This document shows positions 1,376 through 34,797 of a DNA stretch of 40,296 bases, piece after piece. The first letter of the stretch is position 1. Each line of letters opens with the position of its first letter. The stretch lies in the IMG/VR virus record IMGVR_UViG_2585427770_000004; one strand, 5' to 3'. The position numbers were made by a program, and so were the translations under genes. The notes under the pieces are model-generated. The model had not been told where the DNA came from, made no database searches, and was given only the letters and a program-made list of their open reading frames with translations. This stretch comes from a virus (taxonomy: Duplodnaviria; Heunggongvirae; Uroviricota; Caudoviricetes).

Positions 1376-2803
1376 ATGGAGTTAATTATGTTCAGAAATC
1401 AATATGCTATATCAGACGCTTCACTAAGTGGTAACATCAGTCCTGACATGGAATGGCACAGGATGAGCATATACCTAGGAGAGGGGGCAGAGGTTTTCGC
1501 TAATGACAATTGCATTATCATAGGTAAAGTCGTCAATAGCTGCGACCCTAGCATGTCCCCTAATGATATAGCAGACGCTGTATCATCATGCGACAGCATT
1601 GAAAGTGTTTTTGAACTGACTGATGGGATGGCAGGAAGATACATAATCGCTTTCATCATAAACTCAGAGGTATATATGCTCACTGATGCTTGCGGATTCA
1701 AAAGAGCTCTATTTATGAGGTATAATGGTGCTAAAATAATAACATCATCTGAAAATTACGCCGCTCACATATTTGGGTTTAACATTGTCATTAATGAAGA
1801 TATAAAAGATATGATGCGGGATGAATCCTACAGAAGAAAAGAAAGCCCATGGTTTGGTTTGACTTCTCCAGATGAAAGATTCAGTTATTTAATACCAAAT
1901 CACTACCTGTATATAGGTGATTTTACGTTACATCGCATGCCCCCGCCAAAAATTGGTGGTGATGTAATTACCAGCGCATCATCAATGATAAAGAATACAA
2001 TTTTAGCACTTTCTGAAAGGTATAAGTTGATACAGCCTATAACGGCTGGCATTGACAGTAGGATTCTTCTTGCAGCATCTGAATCAGTTAAAGATAAAAT
2101 CGATTATTATGTATTTGGAGACGAAAACTCAAACCACGAAGATGTGTCCGTTCCTAAAGAGCTAGCAAAAATAGTTGGCGTAAATTTTAATGCAATCACC
2201 CCTCCGTCAGCACCAGATGAGTTCAAAAAGAAAATCGAAATGACAGTTCTTAGTGGTAGGGATTTGCCAAAAATAGATAATATATACTATCACTATAAAA
2301 ATTCTAACTTTGAAAAAGTAAACATCAATGGTAATGGCGCAGAGATATTCAGGTCGTATTATGGCGCGTCGATATTAGAGTTTAGCGCCAAGTCACTCTC
2401 TATACTTTCTGGAACTAAAAAATGGCCCATCATGGAAAGAAAGATTTATGATTGGCTAACATTAACTGAAGCCAAAAGATTTTCTCAAGAGAACAACATA
2501 TCAATTACCGACCTTTTCTATTGGGAGCAAAGAATGGCAATATGGGGGTCTATGTTCCCTTTAGAGCAAGATATCGCAATGGATGAGGTGTCGCCATTCA
2601 GCAATAGAAAGCTAATTTTCACAATGCTGAGCGAATCTTCAAGCAAACGTAGATCACCAGACTTTAAATCGGCAACTTTGTTAATTAATTTTATGGATGA
2701 CAGATTAAATAAAGTGCCTGTAAATCCAAAATCATCAAACCATATTATAAACTTTATAAAGGCCCATACAATAACTCAGTTAATTGTTAAGAAAATAATC
2801 TAA
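1376..2803 (+). CDS. Asparagine synthetase (AsnB)-like synthetase-domain protein without N-terminal glutaminase cysteine; cargo gene
   Basis: 475 aa, markedly AT-rich by eye; segment GRYIIAFIINSEVYMLTDACGFKRALFMRYNGAKIITSSE resembles the AsnB GATase-II fold, but the N-terminus is MELIMF with no Cys2; degenerate PP-loop ITAGIDSRILL in place of SGGxDS. Confidence 0.45.
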   Translation: MELIMFRNQYAISDASLSGNISPDMEWHRMSIYLGEGAEVFANDNCIIIGKVVNSCDPSMSPNDIADAVSSCDSIESVFELTDGMAGRYIIAFIINSEVYMLTDACGFKRALFMRYNGAKIITSSENYAAHIFGFNIVINEDIKDMMRDESYRRKESPWFGLTSPDERFSYLIPNHYLYIGDFTLHRMPPPKIGGDVITSASSMIKNTILALSERYKLIQPITAGIDSRILLAASESVKDKIDYYVFGDENSNHEDVSVPKELAKIVGVNFNAITPPSAPDEFKKKIEMTVLSGRDLPKIDNIYYHYKNSNFEKVNINGNGAEIFRSYYGASILEFSAKSLSILSGTKKWPIMERKIYDWLTLTEAKRFSQENNISITDLFYWEQRMAIWGSMFPLEQDIAMDEVSPFSNRKLIFTMLSESSSKRRSPDFKSATLLINFMDDRLNKVPVNPKSSNHIINFIKAHTITQLIVKKII

Positions 2804-2871: not shown

Positions 2872-4518
2872 TTAAATTATTGATAGCGTTCTGATTTCAT
2901 TCCCGACCGGTGATGTCATAACTATCCGTGTTACGTTAGCGCCGGACACCGTATACGTCAGAATTATGTTACCAGCGGTTCCTATATTAAAGTTTTGTTT
3001 AGCCCCTGATGAACCTATAGCTTTGGCATTCGTTAAAGTATACGTATTACCTGAGGTAAATCCTGTAGAAATTACAAATTGTTGATCAACTTTAAAAGGA
3101 ACTGTCATTGTTACGGATGTTGACTCGACAGTAACAAATGGCAGGCTAGGCTGTTTAACCCCCGTCACATCCCAGAACTCACAGTCGCGCACCAATGCTC
3201 GACTAATTAAACCGCGAGTTACAGGGAAGGTTGTCTGGTCCTGCGATAAGAATGCCCCAACGATTTGCACGTTATCGAGCGTAATATCGTGTACCGTGGT
3301 CCCATCTATAGGACTTAACGTTGGTGATGCACTCCAGAGTTTACCCCCCTTCATTTTGATACTCACAGGGGCATTTGGGTCTCCACCATAATATGCACGG
3401 ATACGCTCAAATTTACAATCTGTGAGTTCATAGCTGCCGCGTTGATTGGTTTCGAACATTGTGTAAGCCTCGCCAGGCACGCCATGTCTAACATTGCTGG
3501 CAACAACACGGGGGTTATGTCGGAACGATGCCGACGTAACAGAGAAAACCGGCGCGCAGACATCATTGATTATAATGTCCGTGGTATAACGCCCTGTAAC
3601 AGCGTTCTCAGAGTTACTCATATCCGAATATAGCGCTTTAAAACGGGAGAAGTCTATGTTAAGCCCAACCCCTGCGCTTTTCGGGAGGGGGCCAAAATCA
3701 AGCCCGTCAATAACAATTTTCTTAGGGAAGTAAAGAGTATCATCACGGCCCACAGTTATTAAAGTTCCAGGGTAAGTAGACACACTTCCTGGATAAACTT
3801 TAATATCTTTCAGGGTGATATTATTAAATAACGTAGGACTTATAGGCGAACCGCTACTCGGCCCTTGCCCGGCAGTGACGGCAGCATTGATAATGCCGTT
3901 ACCTGGAACGCCGTTACGCAAACCAGTTAGCTTGATATTCTCCATGTATAAATCACCATCAAAGTAACCACCCGCATCTGAGCGAGTTGCAATGATGTTT
4001 CCAGGCATGTCTGGCGATGAATTGAATGTTGAGTTTGTGACGTACAGGTCGCCAATCCCTGTTACAAGAACCCCGCTGCGGCCGATGTTGCAGTCATTGA
4101 TTTTTAAGTAGTTCTGGAATGGCATATGGAAATCAATCCGGCTTAAGTCGCACCTTTCAAATCGCACATTTGCACAATTATTGCTGCCAGTTGCGCCCCA
4201 CCCTTCCCCGTTTGCGGTTGCGTTTTTGATAGTTACATTCATTGAGTTACCCAACCCGATGGTGTAGGAGTAGATATCTCCCGTTCCTGTGAACGAGTCG
4301 GCAACCGAGGGCGCGAATAACCCATCAACGATGACATCGTAGCTTTCGTTGATTTCAAGACGGCTATCGCTGAAGTTTTGTGTTAGCGGCCTATTAATAA
4401 ATGAAGTATTAATCAGGCGAACTCGTGACGCTTGATTAATGTAAATAATTCGATAATTCTTTGTAAGACTTTCATCTATGGTTAGACCTTTAATAGTTTG
4501 CACGATTACGCGAAACAC
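2872..4518 (-). CDS. Orphan right-handed beta-helix protein (tailspike receptor-binding / polysaccharide depolymerase-like) lacking a head-binding domain
   Basis: 548 aa rich in G/N/T/S/V runs typical of pectate-lyase-like beta-helices (e.g. NGVPGNGIINAAVTAGQG); GTG start at 4516-4518 with an in-frame stop 10 codons upstream; no P22-type N-terminal adaptor; lies 78 bp downstream of the UmuD'-like gene on the same strand. Confidence 0.5.
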   Translation of the reverse strand: MFRVIVQTIKGLTIDESLTKNYRIIYINQASRVRLINTSFINRPLTQNFSDSRLEINESYDVIVDGLFAPSVADSFTGTGDIYSYTIGLGNSMNVTIKNATANGEGWGATGSNNCANVRFERCDLSRIDFHMPFQNYLKINDCNIGRSGVLVTGIGDLYVTNSTFNSSPDMPGNIIATRSDAGGYFDGDLYMENIKLTGLRNGVPGNGIINAAVTAGQGPSSGSPISPTLFNNITLKDIKVYPGSVSTYPGTLITVGRDDTLYFPKKIVIDGLDFGPLPKSAGVGLNIDFSRFKALYSDMSNSENAVTGRYTTDIIINDVCAPVFSVTSASFRHNPRVVASNVRHGVPGEAYTMFETNQRGSYELTDCKFERIRAYYGGDPNAPVSIKMKGGKLWSASPTLSPIDGTTVHDITLDNVQIVGAFLSQDQTTFPVTRGLISRALVRDCEFWDVTGVKQPSLPFVTVESTSVTMTVPFKVDQQFVISTGFTSGNTYTLTNAKAIGSSGAKQNFNIGTAGNIILTYTVSGANVTRIVMTSPVGNEIRTLSII

Positions 4519-4596: not shown

Positions 4597-4983
4597 TCAC
4601 TTCAGCGGGTAGTCATCAAACTCACCATAACGAGCATCGTTAATGATGTATGTGATTACGCCAAATATCGCATCAGGGCTCGTTCCGTCATCGTGCAGAG
4701 GTATAGCTTCCCTTCTTCCTGTCTGCAAATCTTCCAGGTGAACCTTGGGTGATTTTCGGTATCGCTTAATCCTCAGCTCACCTTCCATTCTGCAAACAAG
4801 TAATGAGCCGTCGCATGGTGATAGCGAAGCATCCACAACCAGCAGCGCGCCATTCAGGATACCTTCCCGGTAGTGCGTCGCACCCGCTCGCATGAAGTAC
4901 GTTGCCGCTGGCCTGCTTATGATGCACTTGTCGAGCGATATGCGCTCTTCAACGTAGTCTTGTGCTGGACTCGGGAATCCCAT
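4597..4983 (-). CDS. UmuD'-like protein (S24 peptidase fold; HumD-like analogue of processed UmuD)
   Basis: 128 aa starting MGFPSPAQDYVEERI, matching the region immediately after the UmuD Cys24-Gly25 cleavage site (GFPSPAADYVEQRI); the ASGDSM serine motif appears replaced (AGATHY); RBS GGAGGTG upstream. Confidence 0.7.
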   Translation of the reverse strand: MGFPSPAQDYVEERISLDKCIISRPAATYFMRAGATHYREGILNGALLVVDASLSPCDGSLLVCRMEGELRIKRYRKSPKVHLEDLQTGRREAIPLHDDGTSPDAIFGVITYIINDARYGEFDDYPLK

Positions 4984-5118: not shown

Positions 5119-6216
5119 TTGGAAATCGATAACAGTCCACCAAGAAAGAATAACCTTCAGTATATACAGGCGCTTAGGGCTATTGCAGCTATGCTTGTCG
5201 TACTTTGCCATGCAAGGGATTTTTTGAAAGGAACAGAATATGAATGGCTGGCTCAGCGATTATTTTGGCCTGGTGCATTCGGAGTTGATTTATTTTTCAT
5301 CATTAGTGGTTTTATCATAATTTATACGTCTCATAGCTACCAAAGCAATGATTTGATAAAGTTTATTAAAAAACGTTTCTTAAGAGTTTGGCCTCTATAT
5401 TTCATCATGACTATTGCATATATAGTCATTGTTAAAAATGTTGATTTATCTTTAATGCATGGGTTTTCATATAACCAATCATCTAGCTCATTTGAATTAA
5501 CAAACATAATCAAAGGTTTGCTTTTCATTCCACTAAACACTGAGTCACCTATATACTTTGGGCCTCCATCATTGTTCGTTGGATGGACCCTCAATTATGA
5601 AATATATTTTTATTTAGTTTGCGCCATTGGAATAGCGCTGGGGAAGTTTAGGTATACATTTTATATATTATGGTTTTTCATTACACTGTTAGCTTTGCCA
5701 TCTATTGCGGGTGTATTCGACAGACCAAAAATTGAAGGTTTAGGATATATAAATTTAACCATGCAAAGCCTGATTTGGGAGTTTGTCTTCGGTGCGATTA
5801 TTGCTATCCTATACAAAAGTGGTAACTTTTCAATTAGAGACAAAAGGATTGCAATACCATTAATTTCGATTGGAATCATAATCCCTGTATGGGCTTACAT
5901 AACACAGTTTGATGCTGGGCATGGGATTTTTCATTCAGGGAAATATTTTTGCATAATGTTTGCATGCTTTACTGCATGCTCTGACTACATACAAGACAAC
6001 ATCAAAATACCACGTATTTTCATCATGATTGGTGATGCTTCATACTCTTTGTATTTAGTTCATCCAATTACGTTTATATTATGCTTTAAGATGATAGATT
6101 GGCTTGGGATGGCTGATTTATCAAAAAGCTTCTCGTTTATTTTTATTGTATTTATAACATCTGTAGCTTTTGCACTACTAAGCTATAAATATATCGAGAA
6201 AAATATTCCAAGATAA
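5119..6216 (+). CDS. Membrane acyltransferase family 3 (Oac/OafA-like O-antigen acetyltransferase); probable lysogenic-conversion gene
   Basis: 365 aa, polytopic and hydrophobic; N-terminal motif IQALRAIAAMLVVLCHA typical of Acyltransferase_3; TTG start at 5119 with no in-frame ATG before the motif; AT-rich. Confidence 0.75.
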   Translation: MEIDNSPPRKNNLQYIQALRAIAAMLVVLCHARDFLKGTEYEWLAQRLFWPGAFGVDLFFIISGFIIIYTSHSYQSNDLIKFIKKRFLRVWPLYFIMTIAYIVIVKNVDLSLMHGFSYNQSSSSFELTNIIKGLLFIPLNTESPIYFGPPSLFVGWTLNYEIYFYLVCAIGIALGKFRYTFYILWFFITLLALPSIAGVFDRPKIEGLGYINLTMQSLIWEFVFGAIIAILYKSGNFSIRDKRIAIPLISIGIIIPVWAYITQFDAGHGIFHSGKYFCIMFACFTACSDYIQDNIKIPRIFIMIGDASYSLYLVHPITFILCFKMIDWLGMADLSKSFSFIFIVFITSVAFALLSYKYIEKNIPR

Positions 6217-6252: not shown

Positions 6253-8175
6253 TTAGGCAGAAATATTCACAATCCCCCATGTACTTCCATTCCACACCCA
6301 TTGGACAGTAGGGTCGGAAGGATATGTTGCTGGAGATGTTCTGTAGGACACCAAGCCGATTGGGAAAGAACCTGTGTTCTCTGTCACAGTAGGCTTTACG
6401 CTAGATCTCATTTTTACTTTCTCCCATCCGCAGAATACTGGAAGAAAGGTTCCGTTATACGGGCTAAAATACGCTCCTCCAACATAAGCGCTCATTCCGG
6501 ATTCAACTGTAATCCTTAATCTGTATGCTTTACTTTTGTCGTTGGTTGGCGCTGAAACTTTGTATAACTTCCACCCTCCAACACCCATATCGTAGAACTT
6601 ATTAACTGACATATAGATGGAATTAGTACCATCTTGGGCTTCTATAGCTATCTCAAGTGGTGTGTCGCCTTTAAAGTAAAAAGCTCCACGAATGAAACCT
6701 GTCTGTGTTTTAGTTAAATTTAGGGTTATTCTGCAAAGTTGAGATGCGTTAGTGACTCCAAACCATCTACCGCAGCCAGATGGTTCATTAGGGTCAGAAC
6801 CAACCTTTCGTTCGTTCGGTATAATTAAAAGGGAATAGTCAATAGGTGCTCCGTAGACTCCATCAATAACCGACCAATCTCCAGAAGGGCAAAGATTAGA
6901 ACCGGAGACACTGAACGTATCTCCTCCCTGTGCGCCTGCTGTAGGGTCTGTCCCTAATATGGTATTCATGGGGCTCATGGTTGAGGCCCAGTTACCATAT
7001 TGCACACGCGCGCCAAGTATGGTCCACGGCCCACGTATTTTCCCATTGCCCGTAACCTCGCCATACAAACCTATCACAACATTATGCTGATTTGGGGTGC
7101 TATTGTTATAGAGCAAATAATCGCCGCTTCCCGATGTGTCAAGACCTATAAATGTGTTTGCGTTCCCCTCATACGGAGCACCGGTCTGGCGACTAAAACC
7201 CGATCCAGTTATGATCAGACCACCACCGCAAAGCTGCTCAAATGTATTTTGATTTATAGATCCATCAGAGATGTCAATTATGAATCTGCCACCACCTGAC
7301 GTAGTACCTGTTTTGATGCGTACAAATTGATTCCAAAAACTCCCGCCACCCCATTCAACCAACCCAGGCAGAGTGTATGCGTCTGATGATAAAAATCTTA
7401 TATCGCCGGTCGTATCAATGTTCGAGATAATAGAAAACTGTAGCCCTCTAATGTATAACGATTTACATGAAAGGCCAGTTACATTTATAGATTTACTATG
7501 AAGGATTAGGAAATCCCCGTTAGGGATTCGGCCAACACAATCAACGTTACAGCGGATCACAAAGCGACCAGCAGAAGCATGAATGCCAGTCAGCTTGGTC
7601 ATATCAACGACATAATCGCCTGGAGGGATATGCAATGATTTTCTGTTTTTCCCATACTCAACTAATTGTGAATAATCACCGTTAGCATAATCCAATGCCT
7701 CACACAGTTTAGCAGTAACATCTGTACCATCCGGGAATACTCCCCATCCACGCACGTCTAAATCATCACGCCAGCGATAAATCTGCAATGCGGGATATTT
7801 GGTTGCCCCATCAGGGTCTTCAATCTGCTGCCTTAACTGATCTGGATCATACTTCAACACGTTTGGATAGTTGAACTGCTGTGTACCATAAGCATCGTAC
7901 ACAGCCATAGAATGGCCTTGCACGGTAACGAATTTGGCAATCTGTCCGTTATATACAGGATAACCAGCAGCGTTAATGATGATTGGTTGCGAAACAGGAA
8001 CGTGAGAGCCGTCTTCGTTCTCCACATAAACCTGAATCTGGTTTTCAGGATTTACCGGGTCAGTGTCAATTTTACCGATATAAATTTTGCCATTGGCAAC
8101 CGCTTTAAAAGAACGCGCCATAGTGAAGAGTTGCGAAGGCATGCTTACTACAACATTGGCTGTAATGTCTGTCAT
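6253..8175 (-). CDS. Tailspike protein (P22 gp9 family) with conserved N-terminal head-binding domain and divergent receptor-binding domain
   Basis: 640 aa; N-terminus [97 protein letters not shown] matches the P22/HK620/Sf6 adaptor domain as recalled; the remainder is beta-helix-like but unrecognised. Confidence 0.9.
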
Positions 8176-8275: not shown

Positions 8276-9154
8276 TCAGTAGTTATGTACTGAAGGAGGC
8301 AATTCTTTATTCTTAAGTCTCATCCATGCGGAAAGATTCGTTGGTCCGTCTGGCTCATTAATATCAACATCTCGTGTGTGGTTTATTAAAACGTCTCTCG
8401 CCATTCCGATAACATACGAGAATTCATGACCGTAGTCGTAGCATCTGCCGGAATAGTTCGATTGAATTTGTTTTAGCGCCGGATACAGTTCGCGGAATAA
8501 TGCCTGTGAGCGGTTGGCATAATCCCATAACCATACAAGGCTGTTTGCTTCTTTTGCAGAAAGCTCGTTGGTTTTCTTCTCTTGTTTGCCAATGAACTCA
8601 CCTTCAAGCACTACCCTGTGGATGTACTCTACGGCCAGCGGGATTTGTTCAATTGAAAGTTCATCAATGCTGTCAATACCAAAACGCTGATGAACCATAT
8701 TGTATGCATCGTCATAGCGAAGTCCTTTCCTTCCTACCAGCATGTTTACTGCATCGCGTAGCGGTGTTCTTTCCTCAACAGTGGTTTTCTTTCCTTTTAC
8801 ATACTCGCCATGTTTGCGAATTGAAGGCAGAACTTCTGCTGTTACCCACTTGCGGAATTTGTGCGGGACTGAACCTTTATTGACTGCATCGCGGCAGCGC
8901 AGAACCAATGTATACATACCTGATTCGCTCACAATGCTTAGATTCTGCTCACCACCAAGGGTGTAACTTAAAGTTACTCCCTTTTCATCGTCATCAAGTG
9001 CAGTAAGCGCCTTGCGTGAGTTAGTCAAATCTAAAGCATCACAAACATCTTTAGCTACAAACCACGGCTCACCGCACTTGTTGATGACGCGGATTTCACT
9101 GTCGCCGAATTTGAAGATGGTGAAATCGTTTTGTGCCTTTGCTATACTTTTCAT
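8276..9154 (-). CDS. ant: Antirepressor Ant (KilA-N/Bro-N type)
   Basis: 292 aa directly downstream of arc on the same strand; N-terminus [30 protein letters not shown] matches the antirepressor N-terminal domain. Confidence 0.8.
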
Positions 9155-9222: not shown

Positions 9223-9384
9223 TTACGCACCAATGCGCCCTTCCTTCTTAAAGCTTTCCATTACTCGCTGATAAATCTCAGAATTAACAGACCGACCATT
9301 TTCTTCCGCCACCTTGCGTACCAAATCCAATACTTCTTTAGGCCACCGCAAATTGAACTGTGGCATTTTGCTCATTCCTTTCAT
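9223..9384 (-). CDS. arc: Arc repressor
   Basis: 53 aa MKGMSKMPQFNLRWPKEVLDLVRKVAEENGRSVNSEIYQRVMESFKKEGRIGA, essentially P22 Arc as recalled; the track ORF 9223..9447 extends upstream over the operator. Confidence 0.9.
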   Translation of the reverse strand: MKGMSKMPQFNLRWPKEVLDLVRKVAEENGRSVNSEIYQRVMESFKKEGRIGA

Positions 9385-9399
9385 GTTCACCTCACAATA

Positions 9400-9418
9400 T
9401 AGGTCCACGGTGGACCTA
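9400..9418. promoter_or_regulatory. Mnt operator (O-mnt)
   Basis: Perfect 19-bp palindrome TAGGTCCACGGTGGACCTA between arc and mnt. Confidence 0.75.
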
Positions 9419-9426
9419 TTGAGAAT

Positions 9427-9447
9427 ATAGTAGAGTGCTTCTATCAT
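9427..9447. promoter_or_regulatory. Arc operator (O-arc)
   Basis: ATAGTAGAGTGCTTCTATCAT is the reverse complement of the recalled P22 arc operator ATGATAGAAGCACTCTACTAT. Confidence 0.75.
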
Positions 9448-9474
9448 GTCAATACACTAACTTGGAGTGATGGC

Positions 9475-9729
9475 ATGGCTAGAGATGATCCGCACTTTAA
9501 CTTCCGTATGCCTTTGGAAGTAAGAGAAAAATTGAAATTAAGAGCCGAGGCTAACGGAAGGTCAATGAACTCTGAGTTATTACAAATCGTTCAGGATGCA
9601 CTATCAAAACCATCACCGATTACAGGATATCGCGACGAAGCTGAACGCTTGGCTGATCAGCAGGCTGAGCAGTTCAAGGCTATAGTGTTTGAGACACTTA
9701 AAAAGATTTATGAAAAGGATTTGAAATGA
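9475..9729 (+). CDS. mnt: Mnt repressor
   Basis: 84 aa MARDDPHFNFRMPLEVREKLKLRAEANGRSMNSELLQIVQDALSKPSPITGY, near-identical to P22 Mnt as recalled. Confidence 0.9.
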   Translation: MARDDPHFNFRMPLEVREKLKLRAEANGRSMNSELLQIVQDALSKPSPITGYRDEAERLADQQAEQFKAIVFETLKKIYEKDLK

Positions 9730-10061
9730 GATTTCTATCACTGTTCTTGTTAGCAGTTGTCTCTTCTTCCAGTGCTGAGCTGCGCGAGCTTCAAACGGGT
9801 AATGACCTTCTTTACAACATTCAACAAGGTAAAAAGGGTGATGATTTTTCATCGCTTTACATTACTGGATATTTGCGCGGAGTAACTGACTCATTGATAC
9901 TAATTGGTTCTCTATGTCCTCCTGATGGCGTTGACATGTATCAATACACCGATATCGTTGAGAAATATCTAAACAAAAACCCAGAATCAAGAAATGAGAG
10001 TGCAGTTATACTAACCGCCCTAGCAGTAGGAAAAACATTTCCGTGCAAAAAGAATCAATAA
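9726..10061 (+). CDS. Secreted/periplasmic protein of unknown function (signal peptide), translationally coupled to mnt
   Basis: 111 aa; N-terminus MRFLSLFLLAVVSSSSAEL is signal-peptide-like; two Cys; ATGA start/stop overlap with mnt. Confidence 0.5.
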   Translation: MRFLSLFLLAVVSSSSAELRELQTGNDLLYNIQQGKKGDDFSSLYITGYLRGVTDSLILIGSLCPPDGVDMYQYTDIVEKYLNKNPESRNESAVILTALAVGKTFPCKKNQ

Positions 10062-10076
10062 CAATAAGGGCTTAAA

Positions 10077-10466
10077 ATGAAATTGATTATAGCAATGGCT
10101 TTCCTTGTCTTCTCGTTTTCTGTCTCAGCAGAGTGCTGGGTCGTTGGAGATATGCACGGAATAAGCTATTCAGAACGAAATAATTTTCAACCGGAAGAAG
10201 ATGGTTTTAGTGGAACATTCATCATTAAGACAAACGGTGAAGATGCCAGTATCACATATTCTGGGACGGATGCGGGCGGCATGGCTTACAAAGCATTGTC
10301 TAAAAACTCCATCATTGGAATCGGCGCGAATGGCGAAACTCAACGAGTTATCGACTCATGGGTAATACATCCTAATGGAACAGTTTTAATGTCGAAAACC
10401 ATTTCTGGTTATGGGAATATGGATTCAACCAAAGCTTTTGTTGGAAAAGTAAAAAGAAAATGTTAA
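10077..10466 (+). CDS. Secreted/periplasmic protein of unknown function (signal peptide)
   Basis: 129 aa; N-terminus MKLIIAMAFLVFSFSVSAEC is signal-peptide-like; RBS AAGGG upstream; C-terminal KRKC. Confidence 0.5.
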   Translation: MKLIIAMAFLVFSFSVSAECWVVGDMHGISYSERNNFQPEEDGFSGTFIIKTNGEDASITYSGTDAGGMAYKALSKNSIIGIGANGETQRVIDSWVIHPNGTVLMSKTISGYGNMDSTKAFVGKVKRKC

Positions 10467-10490: not shown

Positions 10491-12332
10491 TTACTGCTGT
10501 GTTGCCTCAGTAGCAAGCAGCGGCCTGATGGCATTTGCAGCGTTACTCAACGCTCTTTCATAGGCTGGCGTTCCAGCTTTAGTGTTTGCCAGACGTAAGA
10601 GAGCATTCCTTGCTGCTTTGGACTCATACAAACGCATCATTGCACCAAAGCCAGCCTCAAGCCCCATTGATACACCAAGAGTCGCAGTTGCGCCAATCGT
10701 CCTTATCCTGTTGGCTTGTGATTGCCCCGTCTGAGTTACTACATTTGCAGTGTCTGACCTTGCTGTTTGCTGTAGAACTTCATGAAGAGCATCAAGCTCT
10801 TTCATGTGCTTTCCAGAAAAAATAGTGTTGTAAATTTCACCGCCTGACTGAGATTTCAGCTTATTAACTTCAGTGATGAACTTGGCTGGAGAGTCACCGG
10901 CCTTTTCCGCTATTTTGCTGACGTAAGCTGCACGCATAGCATCTTTCCCTTTATCATCCAGGGCGCTCCATATTCGTTTCACGTCAGATGGTTTTCTGCT
11001 TAATACAACGGTATTTATAAGTTCAGGACTGGCTTCACTGCTTGCCTTGTTGAGCTTGTTAGCAATGTTTTTATTAAGCACCTTATTATAAACGTTTGCA
11101 TAATCGGAATTTGCTTTAAGGTATTTTGCTGCGTCTGATGCACCGAGGTTTTTAGCAACTGCGTTACGAAGGTCTTTTGACATTGCATTCTCTACCATAT
11201 TGGTAGCTGCTTTTGCCTGGTTGGGGAAGACCATAGCATCTCCCTGAACATTAGATCTAAATGCTGTTCTGTGCTGACGCAAGAGATCAAACGTAACATC
11301 CAAATCAGTTGCAGGGTTTGCTAATTCTTCACGTAGGTTACGCAAGGATGTAAGCAGGCTTTGATTGGCAGACGTCCCAAGCCGTTCCTGTCTTGCGATC
11401 GCTGTATTCAGAGCATTCATGGTATTTGTGGTATCAACTGCGGCATTACCCATTTTATTGGTGACGTCATTGATAACAGCGCCAGCGGCATCCTTCCGCC
11501 CCCTTAACGTGGTGGTAAGAGATTTCACCACATCATCAGGGTTGTACTCACCAAAACGGTCAAAATAATTACTTACCAGCTTACTACGCGTTGCATATTG
11601 CTCCGCTCGCTTTGAGCCTGTCCCTAGCAAAGCCCCCTCGGCATCCTGAGTTAGGCCGCGAGTGAAAGCATTTTTCGGCGGGATAACATCAGATGTCATT
11701 GGTGTCACGCCCATCGATTCTGATGTGGCAATTTTCTTCGCCACTTCTGGCGCAATATCACCTTTTATAGCCGTTATTCCACGCCCTATTCCCTTTGCTG
11801 CTGCGGAAAGAACACCCTGAGTGGCAAGGTTAACTCCGGCATTTTTAGCTGCATTTTGTGCGAAATCGCCTTTCTGATTTGCGGCCTCTGCCAGTGATCC
11901 AATAGCCATGCTTCCTGCCGTTCCAACTCCTGGAACTAAATACCCACCAATTGTTTCACCGGCTTGCGCGTAGGGGTCTGTCGGTCTGTCTACTGGACGA
12001 TAAACATCATCCAAAACCTTGGGTCCACCAAGCCCCTGACTGATTGCATTAATCAGACTTGCGCCGCCCTGCAATACGTCAAATGGTATGTTTACCAGAC
12101 CACGACCAGCCTGTTCTGCAATTTGCCCTGCACTTTGACCACCAGTGAGCCAATCGCCAGCTTGTTGCATCAATGATGGTTCTTCCCGTGTTGGTGCATT
12201 ATTGGCCTGATTAACTGTTTGTTGCTGAACAGCCTGACCAGCAAAATACTCATCAATGGCGGTGCCAATATCTTCGGTGCTCGTACCATCAGGAAAGGTA
12301 AATGTCTTACCGTTTGCAGTTACTTTCATCAT
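10491..12332 (-). CDS. DNA ejection/transfer protein gp16
   Basis: 613 aa; N-terminus [33 protein letters not shown] matches P22 gp16; true start may be the second ATG at 12329 (ATGATGA overlap with the gp20 stop). Confidence 0.85.
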
Positions 12333-34146: not shown

Positions 34147-34797
34147 ATGAATACACAACTGATGGGTGAGCGTATTCGCGCTCGCAGAAAAGAACTCAAG
34201 ATTAGGCAGGCTGCCCTTGGCAAGATGGTTGGCGTGTCTAATGTTGCTATTTCCCAATGGGAGCGATCTGAAACTGAGCCCAATGGCGAAAACCTATTGG
34301 CCTTAGCCAAGGCTTTGCAGTGCTCCCCTGATTACCTGTTGAAAGGAGAGGATAGTCTTTCAAACATTGCCTATCACAGCAGGCATGATCCAAGAGGTTC
34401 GTATCCTCTAATTAGTTGGGTAAGCGCAGGATGTTGGATGGAAGCTGTAGAGCCATATCATAGGCGTGCAATAGATAACTGGTACGACACAACGGTAGAT
34501 TGTTCTGAAGACTCTTTTTGGCTCGACGTTAAAGGCGATTCAATGACTGCCCCGGCAGGACTGAGTATTCCTGAGGGGATGATTATTCTCGTCGACCCAG
34601 AAGTCGAACCACGTAATGGAAAGTTGGTAGTCGCCAAACTTGAAGGAGAAAACGAGGCGACATTCAAAAAGTTAGTTATTGATGCCGGTAGAAAATTCCT
34701 GAAACCACTCAATCCACAATACCCAATGATTGAAATCAATGGGAACTGTAAAATCATTGGCGTTGTCGTTGATGCCAAGCTAGCAAACCTTCCTTAA
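34147..34797 (+). CDS. c2: C2 repressor (HTH plus S24 autopeptidase domain)
   Basis: 216 aa MNTQLMGERIRARRKELKIRQAALGKMVGVSNVAISQWERSETEPNGENLLALAKALQCSPDYLL..., near-identical to P22 C2 as recalled. Confidence 0.9.
   Translation: MNTQLMGERIRARRKELKIRQAALGKMVGVSNVAISQWERSETEPNGENLLALAKALQCSPDYLLKGEDSLSNIAYHSRHDPRGSYPLISWVSAGCWMEAVEPYHRRAIDNWYDTTVDCSEDSFWLDVKGDSMTAPAGLSIPEGMIILVDPEVEPRNGKLVVAKLEGENEATFKKLVIDAGRKFLKPLNPQYPMIEINGNCKIIGVVVDAKLANLP

Follow-up and report, generated by a model that had tools for sequence, protein, structure and literature searches.

The 40,296-nucleotide stretch of DNA analysed here (the window; IMG/VR record IMGVR_UViG_2585427770_000004) is a P22-like prophage of Escherichia coli, in which the repressor gene mnt is followed by two small open reading frames, ORF1 and ORF2; the 1.2 kb around these three genes is 100% identical to the chromosome in several complete E. 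coli genomes. All three lie on the plus strand, with mnt at 9475..9729, ORF1 (111 residues) at 9726..10061 and ORF2 (129 residues) at 10077..10466. By family and predicted fold, ORF1 is a T6SS (type VI secretion system) immunity protein of the Rap1a/Tai4a family, whereas ORF2 is a full-length homologue of the Hex protein of phage 434. On balance, the evidence leans towards a three-gene operon, mnt-ORF1-ORF2, which would be expressed in the lysogen and would export an inhibitor of T6SS amidases together with a periplasmic superinfection-exclusion factor.

In the mechanism proposed, the mnt promoter (Pmnt), active while Mnt silences the antirepressor promoter, would transcribe mnt, ORF1 and ORF2, and the translation of ORF1 would be coupled to that of mnt through an ATGA overlap. 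Both products would be exported by Sec and cleaved by signal peptidase I, after Ala17 in ORF1 and after Ala18 in ORF2, and one disulfide would stabilise each of them. ORF1 would act as a periplasmic helical dimer that binds peptidoglycan amidases of the Tae4/Ssp1 type, delivered by the T6SS of rivals, and blocks their active site, so that the lysogen would resist attack by such amidases. ORF2 would stand in for SieA as a periplasmic barrel that keeps P22-like phages from infecting at the envelope; the step most likely affected would be the delivery of DNA across the periplasm. More tentatively, it is possible that a P22-like phage arms its host in this way against two envelope attacks, by combining Mnt-coupled orphan T6SS immunity, through which lysogeny would amount to resistance to rival Enterobacteria, with a Hex barrel that replaces SieA; as a corollary, 434 Hex would be a secreted envelope protein and not a cytoplasmic guardian of the repressor. 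Both protein families already have names, and ORF1 is correctly labelled in RefSeq.

Two genes with predicted export signals behind mnt

ORF1 and ORF2 are real genes under purifying selection and not chance ORFs. When ORF1 is compared with relatives at saturated synonymous divergence, non-synonymous differences amount to 0.14-0.19 and synonymous differences to 0.78-0.86, and the ratio of non-synonymous to synonymous substitution rates (dN/dS) of ORF2 against its relatives is 0.27-0.32. Both proteins also match PHROGs families, ORF1 with an expect (E) value of 1e-44 and ORF2, which falls in phrog_2651, with E 2.3e-60. It could be argued that the two genes are mere passengers that currently serve neither phage nor host, since ORF1 is rare, occurring in 26 of 5,426 complete E. 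coli genomes (each time with mnt as its neighbour) and in none of 50,697 deposited phage genomes. However, the purifying selection is strong and extends over saturated synonymous divergence, E. coli, Serratia and Silvania share the arrangement, and a decayed prophage of E. coli C has preserved both genes intact, which makes the passenger explanation highly improbable.

The earlier note, which was made from the DNA sequence alone, described two ORFs directly after mnt with an ATGA overlap, and this description is borne out, as the ATG of ORF1 lies on the TGA of mnt. The translational coupling to mnt that it proposed for the pair holds for ORF1, by virtue of the overlap, but does not extend to ORF2, which starts 15 nt past the ORF1 stop with no overlap and with a ribosome-binding site of its own. 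Shine-Dalgarno sequences are found 6 nt 5' of both starts, AAGGA for ORF1 and AAGGG for ORF2.

The N-terminal signal peptides and paired cysteines reported in the same note are also recovered. When read by eye or with a simple heuristic, both N-termini combine a basic n-region with a hydrophobic core of 10-12 residues and with small residues at positions -1 and -3, and both proteins are predicted to carry Sec-type signal peptides and to be exported. The putative signal peptide of ORF1 occupies codons 1-17 (9726-9776) and reads MRFLSLFLLAVVSSSSA, with the hydrophobic core between MR and SSSSA and the predicted cut before EL, whereas that of ORF2 occupies codons 1-18 (10077-10130) and reads MK-LIIAMAFLVFSF-SVSA, with the predicted cut before EC. 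Each protein has exactly two cysteines, C64 and C107 in ORF1 and C20 and C129 in ORF2. A lipoprotein of the Cor, Llp or Ltp type was considered for both and rejected, as neither has a lipobox: ORF1 has no cysteine near the cleavage site, and the first cysteine of ORF2 is at +2 (VSA followed by EC) and not at +1.

In RefSeq, ORF2 is annotated from a later start (WP_002432306.1), which begins the protein at M26 (window position 10152) and thereby removes the signal peptide. This start would delete both C20 and W21, which are invariant in an alignment of 76 members of the ORF2 family, and only 2 nt separate its GGAG from the ATG, so that the long form is to be preferred. The RefSeq start codon thus conceals the export signal, and a correction of the annotation follows.

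ORF1 and the Rap1a/Tai4a immunity family

ORF1 matches the Pfam family PF18602 ('Rap1a immunity proteins') over model positions 1-90 of 90, with 55.3 bits against a gathering cut-off of 27.7 (E 9.7e-15), and it bears the RefSeq name 'Rap1a/Tai family immunity protein' (WP_001211768.1). An AlphaFold2 model of the protein, built on a shallow alignment of 7 sequences, had a predicted local distance difference test (pLDDT) score of 80.8. When this model was searched against the PDB, the top seven matches were all Rap1a (3ZFI, 4BI8) or AtTai4 (6IJE, 6IJF), with template-modelling (TM) scores of 0.65-0.78 and a probability of 1.00, and the next matches fell to TM ~0.3, which leaves Rap1a and AtTai4 as the sole specific fold matches. 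The mature part of the model shows four long helices, as against five in the crystal structures of Rap1a and AtTai4, and a comparison of the ORF1 sequence with solved structures gave only a weak match to Tai4 (E 0.08). The cysteines C64 and C107 are invariant in all homologues and align with the disulfide cysteines of AtTai4; they are spaced by 43 residues in ORF1, compared with 44 in both Rap1a (C78-C122) and AtTai4 (C80-C124). Scans of ORF1 and ORF2 with NCBIfam and PADLOC gave no match.

The characterised members of this family provide the basis for the function proposed. Rap1a is a periplasmic, five-helix, disulfide-dependent dimer that sterically blocks the active site of Ssp1, a peptidoglycan amidase of the Tae4 family (PMC3852654), and AtTai4 has the Rap1a fold with a Cys80-Cys124 disulfide (PMC6277958); in both proteins the cysteine pair forms a disulfide that is required for folding (PMC3852654, PMC6277958). 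ORF1 shares with Rap1a (SMA2260) of Serratia marcescens and AtTai4 of Agrobacterium tumefaciens the PF18602 domain, a small helical fold, a predicted Sec signal peptide and the cysteine pair. Unlike them, it has no adjacent effector or T6SS cluster and lies in the proposed lysogeny operon of a temperate phage, where it overlaps the stop of mnt. By likeness to Rap1a, ORF1 may be expected to dimerise and to bind an amidase, and its family membership points to defence against rival bacteria rather than phages.

ORF1 is an orphan, and the lack of an effector neighbour does not bar it from membership of the family. Its neighbours are mnt, ORF2 and gene 16, with no cognate Tae4/Ssp1 effector or T6SS locus. 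All close homologues that could be placed lie directly after mnt in P22-like prophages, from E. coli, Serratia fonticola, Serratia sp. JSRIV002, Silvania confinis and 16 IMG/VR contigs, and are followed on the 3' side by a Hex-like gene, by a second, diverged Rap1a paralogue (S. fonticola) or by nothing before the gene-16 slot; at none of the placed loci was an effector or T6SS gene seen beside them. A scan of genome contigs for ORF1 relatives returned a single locus, from Silvania. The P22-like prophage of S. fonticola (L005 8001-8715) carries two tandem Rap1a-family paralogues after mnt, 32% identical to each other, an arrangement that resembles an immunity-gene array. More distant genes of the Rap1a family, with no annotated effector adjoining, are present on 46-kb conjugative plasmids of Pseudomonas syringae, by a HicAB module and an insertion sequence (IS) element, and on a Rhizobium plasmid, and a further Rap1a-family gene is found among the early genes of phage DSL-LC04. 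Taken together, these plasmid and phage copies indicate that orphan Rap1a members on mobile elements form a pattern and are not a one-off.

Conjugative elements and chromosomal arrays are known to hold orphan immunity genes; examples for the T6SS are the acquired interbacterial defence islands of the Bacteroidales and the orphan arrays of Vibrio and Salmonella Typhi. The carriage of orphan T6SS immunity genes on mobile elements is a subject of PMC10470768 and PMC7400221. Like such genes, ORF1 has no effector, sits on a horizontally moving carrier and would guard its recipient from the T6SS of other cells; unlike them, it is carried by a P22-like temperate phage, and its expression would be tied to the repressor that maintains the prophage. 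A search of the literature for a phage-borne Rap1a/Tai4 immunity gene, including one in a lysogeny operon of the P22-like type, found no report. If ORF1 does shield against T6SS amidases, this would be a new form of lysogenic conversion, whereby a phage spreads resistance to contact killing among gut Enterobacteria, wired to its own prophage repressor.

A different target has been considered for ORF1, namely a cell-wall hydrolase carried by the virion of a superinfecting phage. ORF1 would in that case be a periplasmic inhibitor acting phage against phage, much as Sp of phage T4 inhibits the gp5 lysozyme, and both ORFs would be exclusion proteins. Consistent with this, the close homologues of ORF1 are confined to the mnt-to-gene-16 slot, with none beside a T6SS effector, this slot otherwise holds envelope proteins allelic to sieA, and the DSL-LC04 copy is an early phage gene. 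Moreover, some proteins of the gene-16 slot contain a lytic transglycosylase domain, as in Serratia sp. JSRIV002 (L007 8536-11337), where an SLT domain of this kind is N-terminal, and gp16 of the window (10491-12332) has its N-terminal half in a PHROG that bears the label 'transglycosylase', although no hydrolase domain is recognised there by Pfam. However, the known targets of the Rap1a family are amidases of the CHAP/NlpC-P60 type, and SLT is a different enzyme class. A Pfam scan of virion proteins, namely gp4, the DUF2824 protein at the gp26 position, gp7, gp20, gp16 and the tailspike, and of what two related prophages encode in the gene-16 slot revealed no Tae4/CHAP-type amidase domain, and the plasmid-borne Rap1a genes without annotated effector fit interbacterial defence better. 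Inhibition of a virion hydrolase is accordingly judged quite unlikely, and protection of the lysogen from T6SS amidases of rival bacteria is preferred for ORF1.

ORF2, the Hex family and the sieA site

ORF2 is 87% identical to orf129 of Salmonella phage Emek and 29-31% identical, over its full length, to the gene lying 3' of cI in phages 434, HK633 and HK446 and to Sf6 gene 38 (gp38). In tblastn searches of 434, Sf6 and HK633, residues 1-129 of ORF2 were aligned at 29% identity (E 3e-7), and a profile search returned a cluster of 134-residue proteins, 29% identical (E 4e-43), which corresponds in length and identity to 434 Hex. ORF2 aligns with 434 Hex and Sf6 gp38 at its signal peptide and at both cysteines. 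Across the family, 75 of the 76 members have, by the heuristic used, a signal-peptide-like N-terminus and exactly two cysteines in the mature part, one of them two residues past the predicted cleavage site and the other within a few residues of the C-terminus. The AlphaFold2 model of ORF2 (pLDDT 90.3) has nine strands and an all-beta mature part, indicative of a small beta-barrel, in which the family's cysteine pair would staple the first and last strands; the fold matches of the model are generic, and the matches of the sequence to solved structures are at chance level. A soluble periplasmic barrel is tentatively favoured for the modelled protein over an outer-membrane protein of the OmpX/NspA/OmpW type on account of its short strands, the terminal cysteine that replaces the aromatic beta-signal, and the cysteine pair itself. 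A mosaic joint is apparent at ~10126, within the signal-peptide codons of ORF2: from there as far as the 3' end of gene 16, DNA identity to Emek is 95.6%, whereas the DNA upstream is unrelated, and the mature ORF2 is nearly identical to its Emek counterpart while the signal peptides are not.

The gene for 434 Hex (L002 2429-2905) has been assigned two different roles. P22 is excluded from Salmonella lysogenic for lambda imm434, and this exclusion is lost when hex is mutated (Susskind and Botstein 1980, as cited in PMC3564112). In PMC3564112 itself, deletion of hex raised spontaneous induction in a recA-dependent manner, and a Hex fragment blocked the cleavage of the 434 and P22 repressors in vitro; the GenBank label for 434 Hex is 'repressor protection protein'. 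If ORF2 acted in this way, it would stabilise lysogeny from the cytoplasm, by shielding the prophage repressor against the self-cleavage that RecA stimulates. Its partner Mnt, however, has Arc and Mnt domains only (Pfam Arc, E 3.7e-28; Repressor_Mnt, E 1.3e-11) and no Peptidase_S24 domain; with no S24 self-cleavage domain in Mnt, the cI-protection role cannot apply to it. In addition, many relatives of ORF2 follow the sieA leader and not a repressor gene, and the signal peptide and terminal cysteine pair seen in 75 of 76 members fit an oxidising periplasm. The active fragment, 'sHex', comprises Glu43-Asn103 of a 158-residue reading of hex; its first residue, E43, is the first after the predicted signal-peptidase site of the 134-residue reading, and sHex covers only the first half of the predicted barrel. 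With a partner devoid of the S24 domain and an export signal throughout the family, a repressor-protecting function of ORF2 is very unlikely. Hex-family proteins are instead predicted from their sequences to be secreted, which calls the published cytoplasmic model of Hex into question. Like 434 Hex, ORF2 is encoded in the immunity region of a prophage, where it lies 3' of a lysogeny repressor gene in the same orientation; it differs from 434 Hex in sequence (~30% identity) and in being linked through ORF1 to the immI repressor Mnt and not to a LexA-like cI.

The genomic context of the Hex family was surveyed at 80 IMG/VR loci, with neighbours called as greedy non-overlapping ORFs. The Hex-family gene was directly 3' of and co-directional with a LexA-like cI repressor gene at 54 of these loci and convergent with cI at 21. 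In a Klebsiella aerogenes prophage the gene and the cI stop overlap by 4 nt, which is coupling of the sort seen between ORF1 and mnt, and copies in Aeromonas and Cedecea occupy small islands with recombinase remnants; no T6SS or effector gene was found beside the copies inspected in Aeromonas, Cedecea and Klebsiella. A second Hex-like gene was looked for beside the c2/cI-type repressor gene of the window (34147-34797), and none was found.

The site that ORF2 occupies was examined at 80 P22-like IMG/VR loci anchored on Mnt (L117-L196). At 66 of these the slot after mnt is bounded by an ejection gene, and in those 66 it is a mosaic of small envelope proteins. The 134-nt promoter-leader of P22 sieA (PsieA leader; L107 3381-3514) is kept at 94-100% identity in 49 of the 80 loci, where it drives at least eight unrelated first ORFs, all of a small envelope type. 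These are single-transmembrane coiled-coil proteins of ~107-109 residues in 16 loci, Hex-like proteins, second only to the coiled-coil set, in 14, a 62-residue protein in 7, a lipoprotein in 4, SieA in 3, and others in the remainder. As Hex-like and SieA ORFs follow the same constant leader, the Hex family is allelic to sieA at one expression site. The window itself does not have the PsieA leader, and ORF2 is there joined behind ORF1. A gene for a 150-residue lipoprotein, read from the opposite strand, is a further frequent occupant of the slot (20 loci).

SieA is a protein of the inner membrane with three transmembrane segments and no signal peptide, which blocks DNA injection by interfering with the gp20/gp16 conduit in the periplasm and membrane, and its gene is present in only 22 of 66 sequenced P22-like phages (PMC10883804). 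As stated in the earlier note, the P22 slot holds SieA where the window holds ORF1 and ORF2; in full, the P22 slot between mnt and gene 16 contains orf59a, a terminator, PsieA and sieA. A tblastn search with SieA gave no match in the loci that carry the ORF1/ORF2 cassette and matched only P22 itself; with no sequence similarity to either protein, a SieA homologue was rejected as a candidate for both ORF1 and ORF2. Like sieA, ORF2 lies between mnt and gene 16 and is convergent with gene 16, and its relatives replace sieA behind the same promoter-leader; expression from the prophage, as for SieA, is predicted for ORF2, and the conduit targeted by SieA belongs to the compartment that ORF2 would occupy. 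Unlike SieA, ORF2 is hydrophobic in a single N-terminal stretch and all-beta in its mature part, that is, a predicted secreted beta-barrel. The superinfection-exclusion function put forward in the earlier note for both proteins is thus supported for ORF2, as a full-length 434 Hex homologue from a family found behind the PsieA leader, and is not supported for ORF1, a member of a T6SS amidase-immunity family; for the envelope-modifying role offered as the other option, no evidence of such an enzymatic role was found. No report that Hex-family proteins are secreted and allelic to sieA was found in the literature. The sieA site of P22-like phages emerges as a swap-in site of greater diversity, and the slot survey suggests what P22-like phages without sieA may use for exclusion.

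The order mnt, ORF1-type gene, ORF2-type gene recurs in a second prophage lineage (L008, L010, L025, L026), at identities of ~67% for ORF1, ~49% for ORF2 and 33-79% for Mnt, and with a different protein in the gene-16 slot. Having diverged together as a pair, ORF1 and ORF2 are long companions, which could reflect either a shared function or mere tight linkage. One form of shared function would be that ORF2 is a second periplasmic anti-toxin, for example against a lysozyme-like effector or another T6SS or bacteriocin effector, and that the cassette is a two-gene islet of interbacterial immunity. The pairing and co-divergence with a T6SS immunity-family gene in two lineages would agree with this, as would the S. 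fonticola locus, where the second position is taken by another Rap1a paralogue. Most members of the Hex family, however, have no Rap1a gene with them and lie by cI or behind the PsieA leader, the inspected copies are not by an effector or T6SS gene, the fold matches are generic, and phage exclusion is the only phenotype reported for the family, as far as the literature cited here extends. A second anti-toxin is therefore considered unlikely, and exclusion of P22-like phages at the envelope is retained as the function proposed for ORF2. An intact copy of the cassette is found in E. coli C (L004, NZ_CP029371.1, 12911-23235), in a decayed prophage at the argW tRNA gene that has lost most phage genes and retains integrase, glycosyltransferase, tailspike, ant, arc, mnt, ORF1, ORF2 and gene 16.

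Several points weigh against an exported pair of protective proteins. The transcription, export, disulfides and activities of ORF1 and ORF2 are all predictions. ORF1 is only 24-26% identical to the solved members of its family, and the Rap1a residues that contact Ssp1 are not conserved in it; the alignment behind its model is thin; and its close homologues are all phage-borne, with none by an effector, so that this lineage could have been recruited to a phage-related task. As to ORF2, the exclusion phenotype of Hex is known for 434 hex in Salmonella only, from genetics of 1980 as relayed by PMC3564112, and this paper, the sole biochemical study of Hex, proposes a cytoplasmic role.

The immI control region and other genes of the window

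The first gene of the proposed operon, mnt, encodes an 84-residue ribbon-helix-helix repressor, and its DNA is 86% identical to that of P22 mnt. Upstream of it, the Mnt operator (9401..9423) was recognised as an exact match to the 17-bp palindrome AGGTCCACGGTGGACCT at 9401-9417, the positional homologue of the mnt operator annotated in P22, and the 21-bp Arc operator was located by sequence at 9427-9447. A promoter scan placed Pmnt on the plus strand at 9419..9447 (TTGAGA-17-TATCAT), at the same place as the annotated Pmnt of P22 and overlapping the Arc operator, and placed Pant, which corresponds to the annotated arc/ant promoter of P22, face to face with it on the minus strand at 9424..9452 (TTGACA-17-TATATT). 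The arrangement of the two operators and two promoters is that of P22, and the immI control region is intact. In a P22 lysogen, Mnt represses Pant and Pmnt stays active, and Pmnt would in the same manner be the source of ORF1 and ORF2 transcripts in the window.

A scan for terminator-like sites from mnt to the end of ORF2 found none. A promoter-like site within ORF1 (9931..9958, plus strand; TTGACA-16-TATCGT) was picked up by the consensus scan only, which found 6 sites against 3.3 expected in shuffled sequence; it is possible that this sequence provides a separate start for ORF2. The G+C content of ORF1 (39.0%) and ORF2 (39.7%) is below that of the window (46.5%), as is usual for phage cargo genes. 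On the far side, the slot is bounded by gene 16 (10491..12332, minus strand), which is convergent with ORF2 and separated from it by 24 nt; it encodes an ejection protein that matches phrog_770 ('DNA transfer protein', E 7e-280) and is likewise named 'DNA transfer protein' in RefSeq. Gene 16 is the first of the ejection genes 16, 20 and 7, which extend from 10491 on the minus strand.

The opposite side of the control region carries arc (9223-9384), ant (8276-9154) and the tailspike gene (6253-8175), all on the minus strand, and the integrase gene is found at 1-1158, with cargo genes between it and the tailspike. By the integrase lies a 475-residue ORF (1376-2803, plus strand; G+C 36.7%), a cargo gene with no match in Pfam, PHROGs or PADLOC. 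A 548-residue ORF (2872-4518, minus strand) matches the C-terminal ~540 residues of the 963-residue tail-fibre/tailspike family phrog_16586 (E 3e-118) and has no head-binding domain; it looks like a receptor-binding module left over from a tailspike swap, beside the working tailspike. It is adjoined by an ORF for a 128-residue UmuD-like protein with a Peptidase_S24 domain (4597-4983, minus strand). Finally, a 365-residue Acyl_transf_3 protein of very low G+C content (33.6%) is encoded between integrase and tailspike on the plus strand (5119-6216) and is probably a lysogenic conversion gene of the O-antigen acetyltransferase type.

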